64,000 nucleotides of DNA from Bacteriovoracaceae bacterium (GCA_048270185.1 JBLWTJ010000003.1:224001-288000), one strand, 5' to 3'; counted from the first letter of the stretch, positions 33,184-39,239 are shown. Program-made: numbers and translations. The notes: a model not told the origin generated them from the sequence alone.

Positions 33184-35115
33184 ATGAAAGTCGACGATTA
33201 TGGTAAGAAAATTACGCAAATGAATGTGGAGCAGCGAAAGCAGCTTGATCGCATTCGTGAAGGCTACCAGTCCACACTCAAGAATATTCAAGATCAAAGT
33301 GATCAAAAAATTAAAACAATTAAGCACGAGCACGCTAAGAAGCAACAAGCTGCTATCGTTGAGAACCAAGAAAATATTTTAGAAGCATCTAAAAAGGCCA
33401 AAGAAGCCTTAGAAAAGTCCAAAGAAATGTTTCGTGAAAAGAATCAGTCGATTAAAGAAGATTTTCGCCAAACTTCAAAAGAACAAAAGGCTAATTTTGA
33501 TGAAAAGCTTGCCACAATAAAGCAAGCTTACGCCGATACTGTTGAGCAAAAAGATGTTGCTCATTCTAAAAGAATTGAGTCTCAAAAAGCACGCTCTCAA
33601 GAGCGTATCGCTTTAAATCGTGACCGCTTTCAAGATCAAATAAAGAGCTTAAATAAGCATAGTGAAGAATCAACAAAGAAGTTAAATTCAGATTTTAGTA
33701 AGCGTGAGAGTGCGCAAGTTAGGGATGCACGTGAAAAACTTAGTGATCTCAAGGCCGAGTTCTCAATTGAAAATCGCGATCTAAAGAATGAAGCCGATAA
33801 GAGCCTTCGTAAAGTTGTGGATGAAGGAAAGAGACGTGAAGACTTTCTTGTTGAAACGAAGAAGCAAGCTTTAGAAGAGGCCAATACTGGATACCGTCGT
33901 CAAATTGAGGCCAAGCAAGAAGGTATTGATCATATTGCACGTGAACTTCATTTAAAGACACAAAAGAGTCTACAAGATCAGCGTCTTGATCATCAAAAAG
34001 AAGTAGCAGGTCTTATCAGAGATCAAAAGAGTATAAGAGAAGATATCAAAGGGGATCATAAGCTTGATATTGCTCGCTTTAAAAGTTCTGGAGTTATGAA
34101 AGAAGTTGAGCAAAAAGGGATTAAGGATACTTATGAACTAAAGCTTGATCGTTTAAAAGACTTGAATGCGGCCACAATCAAGGACTTCGAAGATAAATTG
34201 CGTGATAAAGATATTGCAGTGACAAAGAGAGTTAAGGATCAGTCTCGAGATCAACAAGTTCGTTTCAATGAATTCAAAGATGAAATGAGAAATAACATGG
34301 ATGAGATCCAACTACGTTCTCAAAAACAACATGAGATAAAAGAAGCTCAGTATAATCGTAATATCACTAATGAAAAGAAAGTGGCCGAAGATAATAGTGT
34401 GCAAAAAGAAAACCAATATCGTGAGCTACTCGATAGTCAACGTGAGCACTTCAGAAATAACCTAGTTCGAACAGAAGAGAAGAATATAGAGACGGTAAAG
34501 TCACTTCAAGATTCTTTTAGAGAAGAAAAAGTCGAAATTAATGCCCGAAATCATGATATGTACGCTGATACTTTAAAGAGTCATCGTGAAGAGATGGATA
34601 AGAAGATCACAGATATTCAATCTTCTTATGAGAACAAATTTAAACTTCAAAGTGAACAATTAAAGAAGTCCATTGATGAGGCCCAAGAAAAACTTTATAT
34701 GCTTAGCTCCTCATCAAAGAATAAATTAAGAGCTGAAAGTAAGTTCTTTCAAGAGCAGTCACGCATGCAAAGAGCTGAGATGAAAGAGAACGTTGATCAT
34801 ATAAAGGATCAATATGAGAAGAAGTTCCAAACTCTTCGAGATGATTTCACAAGCCGCTTAAAAATGGTTAAAAGAGAAAATGATGTGAAGCTTTCACGTA
34901 TGACCCATAATCATAATATGGAAAAACAGAAAATGACTGCTGATTATAATACTGACATGAGAAGAAAGCTTAATATGGCCCAGAAGAAATTAGAGAGACA
35001 AATGAGTGACTCTAAAAGGCTAAGAGATTCTCTTGTGGCAAGTTACGAAGAGAAGATTAAAAACTTAAAGAAACAATACGAATTAAAACAAATTAAAGAA
35101 TATAAAAACGTCTAA
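33184..35115 (+). CDS. Long charged coiled-coil protein, paralog of 5627..7597
   Basis: K/E/Q/D/R-rich with no Pro; stop overlaps the dtd start (TAATG). Confidence 0.8.
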   Translation: MKVDDYGKKITQMNVEQRKQLDRIREGYQSTLKNIQDQSDQKIKTIKHEHAKKQQAAIVENQENILEASKKAKEALEKSKEMFREKNQSIKEDFRQTSKEQKANFDEKLATIKQAYADTVEQKDVAHSKRIESQKARSQERIALNRDRFQDQIKSLNKHSEESTKKLNSDFSKRESAQVRDAREKLSDLKAEFSIENRDLKNEADKSLRKVVDEGKRREDFLVETKKQALEEANTGYRRQIEAKQEGIDHIARELHLKTQKSLQDQRLDHQKEVAGLIRDQKSIREDIKGDHKLDIARFKSSGVMKEVEQKGIKDTYELKLDRLKDLNAATIKDFEDKLRDKDIAVTKRVKDQSRDQQVRFNEFKDEMRNNMDEIQLRSQKQHEIKEAQYNRNITNEKKVAEDNSVQKENQYRELLDSQREHFRNNLVRTEEKNIETVKSLQDSFREEKVEINARNHDMYADTLKSHREEMDKKITDIQSSYENKFKLQSEQLKKSIDEAQEKLYMLSSSSKNKLRAESKFFQEQSRMQRAEMKENVDHIKDQYEKKFQTLRDDFTSRLKMVKRENDVKLSRMTHNHNMEKQKMTADYNTDMRRKLNMAQKKLERQMSDSKRLRDSLVASYEEKIKNLKKQYELKQIKEYKNV

Positions 35116-36613: not shown

Positions 36614-37039
36614 TTAATAGAGGCCTTCTTTATTGATTTCATCGATTTGTTCGTTGAGGGTCCAGAAGTCGTAGAGAATACCAAAGAGAAAAAAGCCACC
36701 TGTTAGTAGGTAGACAATCCCCATAATGATTTTTCCTTGATAGAATTTGTGAATCCCAAAAATACCCAGAAAAGTTAGTAGTACCCAAGCGATATTATAA
36801 TCAAGAACTCCTTGAACATATTTAACATCACAATCCTCATCCATTCCTGGAATTAAGAAGAGGTCAACGATCCAACCTATTCCAAATAGCCCAAAAGTGA
36901 ACATCCAGATTGTTCCTGAAACTGGCTTTCCAAAGTAGAAACGGTGAGAGCCCATAAAACCGAAGAGCCACAGAAGGTAGCCCATAACAGCGCTATGAGA
37001 GTCATTTCTAAATGGACTTAGACTTTTCGTTTCGCTCAT
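36614..37039 (-). CDS. Tandem TM2-domain membrane protein
   Basis: GSHRFYFG and GIHKFYQG repeats with G-rich TMs. Confidence 0.9.
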   Translation of the reverse strand: MSETKSLSPFRNDSHSAVMGYLLWLFGFMGSHRFYFGKPVSGTIWMFTFGLFGIGWIVDLFLIPGMDEDCDVKYVQGVLDYNIAWVLLTFLGIFGIHKFYQGKIIMGIVYLLTGGFFLFGILYDFWTLNEQIDEINKEGLY

Positions 37040-37383
37040 TACTTATACTCCTTTAAGGCCCATGGAGGGGCGAGTCGCTCAGACAGAAGAAGATCAAAAC
37101 AATCTTCAATTTTCTCAAAGACTTCCTTAGCTTCAAAGAAATCCTCAAGCTCTTCCATTTGCTCTTCATGTTCGGTTGAGAGGGGGATTCCTGTTATAAT
37201 AAAGTTTAACTCTTCACCTTCAAATTTTGCATTGATATGTAGGTTATGAAATTTCATTTCATTTTTCTTGTACTTTGTTAACTTCTCGTCAGAGAGAAAG
37301 AGAAAGTATTTATCACTGGTATCTGGTCCAATTTCAGTTGAAAAGAAGTATTCAATTTCATTAAATTCACAAGAGAACTTCAT
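37039..37383 (-). CDS. Acidic hypothetical protein
   Basis: ORF coupled to the TM2 gene (TAATG overlap). Confidence 0.65.
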   Translation of the reverse strand: MKFSCEFNEIEYFFSTEIGPDTSDKYFLFLSDEKLTKYKKNEMKFHNLHINAKFEGEELNFIITGIPLSTEHEEQMEELEDFFEAKEVFEKIEDCFDLLLSERLAPPWALKEYK

Positions 37384-37491
37384 ATTTTGCTCACTACTGT
37401 CGCGGTTTATATTTTGAGTTACACTAGTATTATACTAGACTTGGAGATATATGTGAAAGTTGATTATTTAAAAGACTTAGACGGGGAAGAT

Positions 37492-37755
37492 ATGAACGAA
37501 AATGACAACGTGAAGGAAAGAAAAGAGCCGCGTCGTATTCTTGTGGGAAGTGATAAGAAGACTCTTAACCTTACTGATAAGGATATACTCATTGTTGCTT
37601 CTAAACTAAAGAAGTATATCAAAGATAAGCATGGCCTAAATACTTCCGCAAATGTCATGGACATTTTATCTGACATTGTCCGTGTAAAGTGCGATGCTGC
37701 AGCTCAAAGAGCAAAGCAGAGAGGCCGTAAGACTTTGCAGGATAAAGATTTTTAG
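37492..37755 (+). CDS. Bacterial histone-fold protein (Bd0055/HBb-like) with N-terminal extension
   Basis: SD GGGGA before ATG 37492; ILIVASKLKKYIKDKHGLNTSANVMDILS...RAKQRGRKTLQDKDF with the histone RKTxxxxD motif. Confidence 0.85.
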   Translation: MNENDNVKERKEPRRILVGSDKKTLNLTDKDILIVASKLKKYIKDKHGLNTSANVMDILSDIVRVKCDAAAQRAKQRGRKTLQDKDF

Positions 37756-37758
37756 AGA

Positions 37759-38313
37759 ATGAATAAATTAGAAGAAATTGCCCGTGGTGTTGAGCTTGTC
37801 TCTAGCGCCACTAAATCATCAGTGACCTTATTTGGGGGGAGCTTCCATCCATTTCATGAAGGTCACCTCGAATGCCTTAACCAATGCCTTGAATTTGAAG
37901 ATAATATCATTATCGTTTTAGATTACAGTCCATGGAAGTCTAATGAGCAAGAAGATCCTTATGGTGAGTATCTAAAGATAAAAGAGGCGACGGATGGCCG
38001 CTTTCCTATCTATACAGGATTTTGGGCAAAGAAGCTAAGACGTCCAACCTATGAGTGGTTACAAGAAATTGAATACCCTGAAATCAATTGGCTTATGGGA
38101 GATGATACCTTTGGATCATTTCTAAAATGGTTTGAAGTTGAAAAGGTATGCCAAAGACTTTCTAAAATCTATGTTGTTCCTCGTGAAGAGAAGATGGATG
38201 AATATAGAGAAGTTGAAAAGAAGATTAGAGAGTTTAATTCAAAGCTTGAGGTTGTCTATCTTAAGCCTCATGCGTTTCAGGAATTAAGTTCGACGCAAAT
38301 AAGATCAAAGTAG
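37759..38313 (+). CDS. nadD: Nicotinate-nucleotide adenylyltransferase-like (NadD family)
   Basis: FGGSFHPFHEGH (HxGH), LMGDD..F.KW, LSSTQIR. Confidence 0.75.
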   Translation: MNKLEEIARGVELVSSATKSSVTLFGGSFHPFHEGHLECLNQCLEFEDNIIIVLDYSPWKSNEQEDPYGEYLKIKEATDGRFPIYTGFWAKKLRRPTYEWLQEIEYPEINWLMGDDTFGSFLKWFEVEKVCQRLSKIYVVPREEKMDEYREVEKKIREFNSKLEVVYLKPHAFQELSSTQIRSK

Positions 38314-38332
38314 AAATAGGAAAGGCTAAGAG

Positions 38333-38433
38333 TAAATGGCTAAGAATAAGAGTTTAAAAATAAATGGCTAAGAATAAGAGTCTAAAAATAAATGGCTAAG
38401 AATAAGAGTCTAAAAATAAATGGCTAAGAATAA
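38333..38433. repeat. 28-bp tandem repeat, about 3.6 copies
   Basis: TAAATGGCTAAGAATAAGAGT(T/C)TAAAAA at 38333, 38361, 38389 and partial at 38417. Confidence 0.95.
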
Positions 38434-38461
38434 AAAAGCTCCTTAATAAGGAGCTTTTTTT
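38432..38461. terminator. Bidirectional terminator
   Basis: AAAAAAGCTCCTT-loop-AAGGAGCTTTTTT. Confidence 0.85.
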
Positions 38462-38490
38462 ATTCTGTCGCTTGGTCTTTCCCATAGCTC

Positions 38491-38527
38491 CAGAAACAAC
38501 AAAGCCGGGCTTGAACCCGGCTTGTTG
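38491..38527 (-). terminator. Probable rpsD terminator
   Basis: Minus strand AAGCCGGG-loop-CCCGGCTT followed by TGTTGTTT. Confidence 0.65.
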
Positions 38528-38606
38528 AATAAATAATTTGCCCTCTTCGAGGGGAGCTAGCATCGCGTCCAATAGGTTGCCTTTGGGCAACCAATGCCGC
38601 GAGTGC

Positions 38607-39239
38607 TTACTTAACCTTCCAGTAGTACTCAATAACTAGCTGAGAGTTGAATTCAAATGGAACATCTGATTCAAGTGGTGCAGCAACCATTGAAGCTTTC
38701 TTCTTATCAGAACCTTCAACATTGTAACAAGCTGGAACAGCTGCGAAACGTGGAGTTTCTTGAGTTTGCTTGTAAAGTTGGTTGTTGTAACCTTTCTCAG
38801 TTAGAGAAACAACGTCACCTGTTTTTACGATGAAAGATGAACGGTCAACTTTCTTCCCGTTAACAAGTACTTGTCCGTGAGAAACCATTTGAGATGCAGC
38901 AAGCATTGATGGTGCAAATCCAAGTCTGAAAACAACGTTGTTCAGTCTTGACTCAAGGTTAGTTAGAAGTACTTCCATCCAAGGTTTACCAGCAGTATTC
39001 TTCTTAGCTTGCTTAACGTAAGTAACAAGTTGCTTTTCTCTTAGACCGTAGTGAAATACTAGTTTTTGTTTTTCTTTTAGACGAACGGCATAGTCAGAGA
39101 TTTTCTTTCTTTTGTTACCGTGAACACCTGGACCGTATGGACGACGAGCTAGTGCTCCAGCTTTACCAAGACCTGGAAGTTCAACACCTAGTGCTCTTTG
39201 GATTTTAAAGCGTGATCTCGCTGTAGTACTCTTTGCCAT
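38607..39239 (-). CDS. rpsD: 30S ribosomal protein S4, stand-alone
   Basis: PGVHG, SDYAVRLKEKQK, YGLREKQ, LESRLNNVVFRLGFA, VIEYY; SD AAGGAG before ATG 39239. Confidence 0.96.
   Translation of the reverse strand: MAKSTTARSRFKIQRALGVELPGLGKAGALARRPYGPGVHGNKRKKISDYAVRLKEKQKLVFHYGLREKQLVTYVKQAKKNTAGKPWMEVLLTNLESRLNNVVFRLGFAPSMLAASQMVSHGQVLVNGKKVDRSSFIVKTGDVVSLTEKGYNNQLYKQTQETPRFAAVPACYNVEGSDKKKASMVAAPLESDVPFEFNSQLVIEYYWKVK

Follow-up and report, generated by a model that had tools for sequence, protein, structure and literature searches.

The stretch of DNA analysed here, a 64,000-nucleotide (nt) window, comes from a member of the Bacteriovoracaceae, a marine predatory bacterium that is Halobacteriovorax-like. 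Our subject is a short plus-strand gene in this window that encodes a histone of 100 amino acids (aa) with an N-terminal extension, and the gene for a NadD-like nucleotidyltransferase that begins 3 nt past its stop codon (Table 1). An earlier note on this DNA had described the open reading frame (ORF) 37492-37755 as a bacterial histone with a charged tail of about 30 aa, containing Lys and Arg residues that could be modified, and coupled to a NadD-like gene. That ORF, on the plus strand, translates exactly as quoted there, and the 30-aa peptide quoted as preceding the fold indeed contains no Cys.

Histone fold and translation start

The protein is a bacterial histone with the α3-type fold of HBb (Bd0055). 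Residues 31-86 of the 37492-37755 ORF match HBb/Bd0055 (PDB 8fvx/8cmp) with an E-value of 3.2e-9 (about 44% identical across 56 residues) in a phmmer search of the PDB, which bears out the likeness that the earlier note had pointed to, and the same search matched Leptospira HLp (9qt0) at E 4e-6. In an AlphaFold2 (AF2) model built on 71 relatives, helices span residues 42-60 and 66-89, with a one-turn helix at 97-99, and the fold blocks reach a predicted local distance difference test score (pLDDT) of 86-92. HBb, HLp and HTkC stand at the top of the Foldseek list (TMt 0.75-0.84, root-mean-square deviation (rmsd) 1.7-2.0) and stay on top upon VIA re-alignment (Z 6.0-6.6 over 56-59 residues, with rmsd 1.7-2.2 across the two methods), so that a histone fold is predicted and the comparison with Bd0055 includes a superposition on HBb as well as a sequence match. 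Since Z values of 6.0-6.6 are normal for a 57-residue domain, it is the sequence E-value that carries the assignment of the fold. According to Schwab 2024 (PMC11390915), α3 histones are recognized by a truncated α3 helix of 3-4 residues and by an RxTxxxxD motif in L2/α3; in the model, L2 is followed by a helix of 3 residues (97-99), and R92, K93, T94 and D99 are invariant across the 71 aligned sequences. The bacterial-dimer category of histones is defined by sequence clustering, and the protein shows the relatedness to HBb that goes with this category, with the ZZ histones being closer still.

A homodimer is predicted with an ipSAE of 0.71 compared with 0.00 for the best control, agreement between runs of at least 94% of contacts and a partner pLDDT of at least 67. 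Among proteins with solved structures, this mark was attained by 20 of the 30 pairs and by 1 of the 23 single chains. The confident interface is confined to residues 44-100, and because HBb dimers have already been solved this pass may reflect likeness to known structures instead of being independent proof. HBb contacts the DNA backbone through T8, S9, K10, K12, K16, N22, T23, S24, A25, K52, T53 and R57, and has an R51-D58 clamp (Hu 2024, PMC11317129). Ten of these 12 contacts are identical here in the phmmer alignment (S50, K51, K53, K57, N63, T64, S65, A66, K93 and T94), the changes being R57 to K98 and T8 to A49, and the clamp is retained as R92-D99. From the conserved contact residues we infer that the fold would homodimerise and bind the DNA backbone through helix α1 and the L1 and L2 loops, like HBb, and that the protein may bend or coat DNA in the same manner, as a dimer without sequence specificity.

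Translation very probably starts at GTG 37453 and not, as the earlier note had assumed, at ATG 37492; with this start the extension is 44 aa long. Public gene calls for the histone and its relatives give proteins of 98-105 aa that begin with MKVDYLK (100 aa for this protein, P0003), and 24 relatives with 55-84% identity have kept the peptide MKV[DS]Y[LVI]K. The MKV start codon is ATG in six and GTG in three of nine loci of the same type, all nine of which have a Shine-Dalgarno (SD)-like purine run 5-9 nt 5' of it, and in L042 and L044 a stop codon lies immediately 5' of it. Met14, the start favoured in the earlier note, is a Val (GTG) in the nearest relatives, and codons 14-44 differ from these relatives by 12 synonymous and 6 non-synonymous changes, mostly at third positions.

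If translation instead began near the fold boundary, the extension would be untranslated and the upstream frame would be open by chance or as part of a leader. An older public annotation of the Halobacteriovorax vibrionivorans orthologue (P0114) fits such a start, as it comprises only 63 aa and begins at a Leu codon 6 residues ahead of the fold, and tail-less relatives such as L019 and L030 do exist. This genome, however, has no corresponding start codon at that place and no in-frame ATG, GTG or TTG anywhere between GTG codon 31 and the fold, so that even the shortest conceivable product keeps at least 13 extra residues. The three islands of the extension that are conserved at the protein level in 24 sequences (described below), the excess of synonymous changes and the SD-like runs all argue in the same direction, and we regard a start at the fold boundary as highly improbable. 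We note that public records for the H. vibrionivorans orthologue disagree, giving 63 aa (P0114) in one case and 104 aa (P0008) in the other; comparative evidence favours the long form.

The extension and its kinship with ZZ histones

Residues 1-22 of the extension have a pLDDT below 50 in the AF2 model and residues 1-41 are without helix or strand; the extension is predicted to be intrinsically disordered. It contains 10 K/R and 11 D/E in 43 residues, giving a net charge of -1, and across the 24 relatives this charge ranges from -4 to +3. Three islands are conserved among these sequences, namely MKVxY (residues 1-5), PRRILV (residues 26-31) and K-T37, within which conservation is at least 90% for K2 and Y5 and complete for P26, R28 and T37; R28 remains at least 90% conserved over 71 sequences that include ZZ forms. 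The acidic stretch that follows MKVxY varies in sequence and length in the 24-protein alignment, and the segment before PRRILV is acidic in 23 of the 24 relatives (+1 in the other), with the segment after it being basic. There is no Cys or His in residues 1-44, and inspection by eye found no hydrophobic stretch that might indicate a secretion signal. When the 44-aa extension alone was searched against 1.84 billion representatives it gave two matches and no other domain context: one (P0122) is a long tandem-repeat protein, and thus a compositional or repeat-inflated match, and the second (P0123) has seven matched stretches.

The extension is conserved, and it is highly charged in line with the charged tail of the earlier note, but it is longer than the 30 aa given there and its charges almost balance. 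This bears on the proposal that the protein is a tailed histone of a eukaryote-like or Asgard-like kind, with a Lys/Arg-rich tail that serves as a platform for modification. Eukaryotic histone tails do undergo modification, and the 10 K/R and predicted disorder of the extension would suit such a role. What we find, however, is a net-neutral polyampholyte whose variable part is acidic and whose conserved elements are short motifs and not a basic tract, and the histone with a truly basic tail (+13 over 29 aa) is encoded by another gene of this genome. We consider a modification platform in the eukaryotic sense very unlikely; the extension is best explained as the linker of a ZZ histone.

ZZ histones combine a ZZ-type zinc finger (C4 and C2H2 sites) at the N-terminus with a C-terminal bacterial-dimer-like histone domain, and Bdellovibrio bacteriovorus has one of them, which unlike HBb is expressed at a low level (Schwab 2024, PMC11390915); joining this account with that of Hocher 2023 (PMC10627809), the B. 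bacteriovorus ZZ histone is presumably Bd3044. The best relatives of our protein beyond the clade of 100-aa proteins are proteins of 143-153 aa with an N-terminal Cys-rich domain. Their layout is W-R-K-C-x2-C ... C-S-V-x-C-W-x2-H ... H-K-S-A-W-A-E-E, followed by an acidic stretch, PRRI[LI]V, a Ser/Thr-rich spacer and the same fold, and they fit the ZZ histones as Schwab 2024 (PMC11390915) describes them. They share 44-54% identity with the query over the whole length (alignment A1) and 48-67% in local BLAST alignments, compared with about 44% for HBb. The bacterial-dimer-like α3 fold, the acidic segment, PRRI[LI]V and a Ser/Thr/Asn-rich linker at equal distance from the fold are thus common to both, although ZZ histones have about 145-155 aa and a zinc finger, whereas the present protein has 100 aa and the conserved MKVxY N-terminus instead. 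It has the C-terminal domain of a ZZ histone, then, without the zinc finger, and it has the shared linker (acidic stretch, PRRI[LI]V and S/T-rich spacer), which is a trait defined by this analysis and not by the literature. MAFFT and the A1 profile both place MKVDYLK under HKSAWAE (profile position 50), where the ZZ domain has its last zinc ligand and its final strand. In a model of the ZZ relative P0037, residues 1-66 form a confident N-terminal domain, whose matches outside the histones are weak ones to p62 ZZ domains (E near 0.1, TMt near 0.53), and the PRRIIV segment has a pLDDT below 50.

Taken together, we think it likely that the protein is a ZZ-less descendant of the ZZ-histone (Bd3044) lineage, that its disordered extension, translated from GTG 37453, is a retained linker, that its gene is probably co-transcribed with the NadD-like gene, and that it is not a eukaryote-like tailed histone. 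The extension would share ancestry with the linker between zinc finger and histone fold in ZZ histones, with the zinc finger having been lost, PRRILV having been kept and the new N-terminus, MKVDYLK, sitting at what was the last strand of the ZZ domain. As to what such a linker might do, it would tune DNA binding: its first half, being acidic, could cover the basic face that binds DNA or compete with DNA, and its basic PRRILV-KK segment could add a contact with DNA, with its groove or with a partner.

The distribution of the different forms is consistent with this reading. A sample of the family gave a match in 54 of 61 genomes, and among the 30 best family loci 24 encode the Cys-rich domain, four are ZZ-less with an extension (L004, L005, L006 and L015) and two are tail-less. 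A scan of species-representative genomes, in which a locus was counted as ZZ if its upstream open frame had 5 or more Cys, gave 75 loci: 47 are ZZ and 8 are of the MKVDY type, to which the present gene belongs; another ZZ-less type (MNDE..K[KR]IxV) accounts for 4, and 16 are short forms. In the 24 family loci and the 47 ZZ loci of the scan, PRRI[LIV]V and then the fold come after the Cys-rich domain. In a tree built from 59 fold columns, from which L106 and L109 were left out because they did not match the fold pattern, the ZZ-less rows fall in a polytomy within a clade of 47 rows of which 31 are ZZ (SH-aLRT 82), and the deeper branches, including those from Myxococcota and Pseudobdellovibrionaceae, are ZZ forms except for the tail-less L099 and L112. 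With regard to the idea of a split gene, in which a separate protein would supply the ZZ domain, a single query, the ZZ part of P0037, found nothing ZZ-like in the rest of the genome, which is 95.9% complete. We also note that histones of this family occur on contigs of metagenome-assembled genomes labelled Nitrosopumilus, Nitrospinota, Krumholzibacteriia and Nitrospira (L065, L075, L076, L083, L110 and L111), which reflects either a wider distribution or mis-binned contigs.

Several observations weigh against this interpretation. The match to the Pfam family CBFD_NFYB_HMF is below threshold (14.6 bits, with a cut-off of 21.4), and a scan of the histone protein against NCBIfam gave no match. 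The 63-aa annotation P0114 points to a product almost without an extension. PRRILV is predicted to be disordered in the models of both the query and P0037, and lies outside the confident dimer interface. The alignment of MKVDY with HKSAW amounts to one Lys and one aromatic residue only. As for the tree, 39 of its 71 inner branches lack resolution, the query falls within no starred branch, and the root is placed on one very long outgroup branch. Because a tree of 59 columns is poorly resolved and its root uncertain, loss of the ZZ domain is the parsimonious reading and not a demonstrated one.

The same weakness of the tree leaves some room for events in the opposite order, with an HBb-like singlet having gained the PRRILV linker first and the ZZ domain having been added later elsewhere, so that the present form would be the ancestral one; ZZ-less forms that bear PRRI and have several types of N-terminus do exist. 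On the other hand, ZZ rows surround the ZZ-less ones in the tree, its deepest branches are ZZ apart from the two tail-less rows, only 4 of the 28 family loci with an extension are without the ZZ domain, and in the alignments the protein's N-terminus falls where the ZZ domain ends. We judge this reverse order to be quite unlikely, and retain descent from a ZZ histone as our interpretation.

The NadD-like gene and other neighbours

The gene downstream of the histone gene starts, as the earlier note had it, 3 nt past the histone stop (TAG, 37753-37755). Its product matches PF01467, the cytidylyltransferase-like family, with an E-value of 2e-8 (34.9 bits, cut-off 21), which places it in this superfamily, and it matches the NadD profile TIGR00482 with E 2e-13 but at 50.8 bits, below the cut-off of 112.45, so that it falls short of every NadD cut-off and is NadD-like without qualifying as NadD; this is the identity the earlier note had given it. 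The alignment to TIGR00482 is full-length (residues 24-183 to profile positions 1-168 of 194), and the protein is the best NadD-like match in the whole genome, the next one being, at a guess from its size, CoaD. A sequence search of the PDB gave no match at E 1e-3. FHEGH and SSTQIR can be read in the protein, which may be the HxGH and SxxxxR-type motifs of nucleotidyltransferases.

The two genes are probably co-transcribed, in agreement with the earlier note, since the gap between them is 3 nt, there is no terminator-like site between them and a terminator-like hairpin follows the second gene (Table 1). A look for sequencing runs containing 36900-38500 turned up metagenomic DNA contig runs only, with a share of at most 0.40, and none of RNA. 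Across the 75 loci of the genome scan, a NadD-like ORF starts between -58 and +15 nt from the histone stop in 15 (L062, L086 and L097 entered this count with less than 500 nt of downstream flank). The synteny proposed as a check in the earlier note thus holds for the MKVDY type (7 of 8) and the MNDE type (4 of 4), but for only 4 of the 47 ZZ loci and for none of the short forms. In L045 the NadD-like ORF lies 2.1 kb downstream of the histone. In the family sample pairing is seen in 8 of 30 loci; the 30-locus and 75-locus samples may share genomes and their counts are not additive. The partner itself varies in form. It is a fusion of an N-terminal NUDIX domain to a C-terminal NadD-like domain in L015, L020, L022, L026 and L052, an order of domains that is the reverse of that in the known NadM-Nudix enzymes; it has an unassigned N-terminal extension of about 80-120 aa in L017, L031, L040-L044 and L048, and of about 50 aa in L064; and only in the present genus is it trimmed to 184-186 aa. 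Other ZZ loci have unrelated neighbouring genes.

Such pairing raises the question of whether the histone could be a dedicated local regulator or partner of a NAD-salvage gene, and not a general chromatin protein. NadR and NrtR, in which a DNA-binding module is coupled to nicotinamide mononucleotide (NMN) adenylyltransferase or Nudix modules, follow a logic of this kind. The recurrence of the pairing in both samples, the NUDIX fusions of several partners and the low expression of the B. bacteriovorus ZZ histone (Schwab 2024, PMC11390915) are in keeping with the idea. However, the pairing is missing in 43 of 47 ZZ loci and in all tail-less loci, adjacency alone is weak evidence, and we have identified no conserved operator; moreover, because folds of the HBb type touch only the DNA backbone (Hu 2024, PMC11317129), there is no basis for operator recognition. 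Such a dedicated role seems to us unlikely. More speculatively, the histone and the (Nudix-)NMN/nicotinate mononucleotide adenylyltransferase might form a functional unit in which the histone is the DNA-binding arm of a NAD-salvage module, regulating the operon or sensing NAD or ADP-ribose metabolites, with PRRILV and MKVxY as sites of contact; we offer this as a doubtful possibility.

Upstream, the histone gene is preceded by a σ70-like promoter candidate and a Shine-Dalgarno sequence (Table 1). The last 45 nt or so 5' of the GTG are near-identical in relatives whose proteins are 83% identical, and since a stronger, minus-strand promoter-like site for the divergent gene (37457-37429, 11 of 12 matches) overlaps the histone promoter candidate and also the histone start, this conservation may serve either gene. 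The divergent gene encodes an acidic protein of 114 aa, a homologue of which adjoins all eight MKVDY loci as well as L005, L006 and the ZZ loci L017 and L051. A Pfam scan of this protein found no family above cut-off, and the best result of an Atlas search (0.84, DUF6575) is a lead only. It could be a partner of the histone or a co-regulated gene.

Table 1. Features of the histone locus (window coordinates) and NUDIX-NadD-like fusion genes at related loci (locus coordinates)
Feature	Position	Strand	Remarks
Histone gene	37453..37755	+	100 aa and stop; start very probably GTG 37453 (corrected); ATG 37492 is codon 14
N-terminal extension, residues 1-43	37453..37581	+	MKVDYLK island, variable acidic stretch, basic PRRILV...KKT segment
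PRRILV motif, residues 26-31	37528..37545	+	Common to the linker of ZZ histones
α3-type histone fold, residues 44-100	37582..37752	+	α1, L1, α2, L2 with RKT, one-turn α3
σ70-like promoter candidate	37406..37433	+	TTTATA, 16-nt spacer, TATTAT; 9/12 consensus-scan matches
Shine-Dalgarno GGAG	37443..37446	+	6 nt 5' of GTG 37453
NadD-like nucleotidyltransferase gene	37759..38313	+	184 aa; 3 nt past histone stop
Terminator-like hairpin and T run	38432..38460	+	Closes two-gene unit
Divergent gene, 114-aa acidic protein	37039..37383	-	Conserved neighbour of MKVDY-type histones
NUDIX-NadD-like fusion genes	L015:1740-2807, L020:1758-2780, L022:473-1495 (-), L026:520-1497 (-), L052:3237-4301		After ZZ or ZZ-less histones, other genera

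Between the NadD-like stop and the terminator hairpin lies a 28-bp unit repeated in 3.9 copies with 95% matches (38326-38433). An Rfam scan of 37300-38700 found no family at gathering score, and a tRNA search of 38200-38800 found none. Elsewhere in the window, a 643-aa ORF (33184-35115, plus strand) with a coiled-coil-like appearance and an extremely high content of Lys, Glu, Asp and Gln lies directly 5' of an ORF recognized by eye as D-aminoacyl-tRNA deacylase-like.

Place among bacterial histones

A count of histone paralogues, as the earlier note had suggested, gave only two histone-fold genes in the genome with three different queries. The second (G000:C1:871953-872210, minus strand, which is L002:1489-1749, minus strand) encodes 86 aa, including a 29-aa N-terminal tail rich in Lys and Ala with a net charge of +13, and is 33% identical to the 100-aa histone. 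Its best PDB match and best solved relative is HLp, the tetrameric histone of Leptospira (9qt0; E 6e-12), and it is probably of the Face-to-face (FtF) type, like E1WYC3 of Halobacteriovorax marinus SJ, which the Schwab 2024 supplement (PMC11390915) lists as Face-to-face. E1WYC3 is the only E1W/E1X accession in the searched portions of that supplement, which thus gave no H. marinus orthologue of the 100-aa histone. Positively charged tails like that of H3 are present in most bacterial FtF histones (Schwab 2024, PMC11390915). As these tails have been published, a tailed bacterial histone is already known, and here that description belongs to the second gene.

The present protein can be set apart from each of the known kinds of histone that it resembles. 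It shares with HBb/Bd0055 (8fvx, 8cmp, 9ezz and 9f0e), in addition to the identity of the fold, the one-turn α3, the RKT loop, the RD clamp and a predicted dimer, but HBb, an abundant and probably essential nucleoid protein of 64 aa, has essentially no extension, whereas our protein has one of 44 aa and belongs to another, less studied lineage. With the FtF histones (HLp, 9qt0; E1WYC3) it shares the α3-family fold and an N-terminal tail, although the FtF tails are strongly basic, unlike the near-neutral extension here. To ZZ histones it is linked not only by fold and linker but also by the NadD-like gene found next to some of them. The histone doublets of Bacteriovorax and Peredibacter (Marinov 2025, PMC11789641; PMC13147790) come from the same bacterial class and have HBb-like folds, but carry two folds per chain where our protein has one, and the queries used found no doublet in this genome. 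We note that many genomes of the family contain pairs of HBb-like matches about 200 nt apart within one open frame of about 137-160 aa (for example G010:C24:32411-32785, G040:C173:3101-3472 and G031:C1:374833-375207); these are probably the published doublets.

Bacterial histones, ZZ histones, basic-tailed FtF histones and doublets have all been published. Within the literature covered on ZZ histones, Bd3044/Bd0055 and Halobacteriovorax histones, which took in the Schwab 2024 supplement only in part, no ZZ-less branch of the ZZ lineage is described, and in the same body of literature, to the extent it was covered, we found no description of the PRRILV linker motif or of a link to NadD-like or Nudix-NMN adenylyltransferase genes. 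Bacterial histones have been characterized only since 2023, and the locus is of interest to the field of bacterial chromatin in several respects. That standard domain models miss histones such as this one means that catalogues built on them may undercount, and the idea of a eukaryote-like tail can be corrected, in that this organism's basic-tailed histone is another one, of a type already described. As members without a zinc finger keep PRRILV, this motif would work without a ZZ domain in cis, and the single query used found no such domain in the rest of the genome. Lastly, the ZZ/Bd3044 lineage has no known function, and its recurrent pairing with genes for NadD-like and Nudix-NMN adenylyltransferase proteins provides a concrete lead towards one; were the proposed NAD-salvage unit to prove true, it would be a histone-based analogue of NadR and NrtR and the first function for the ZZ-histone lineage.

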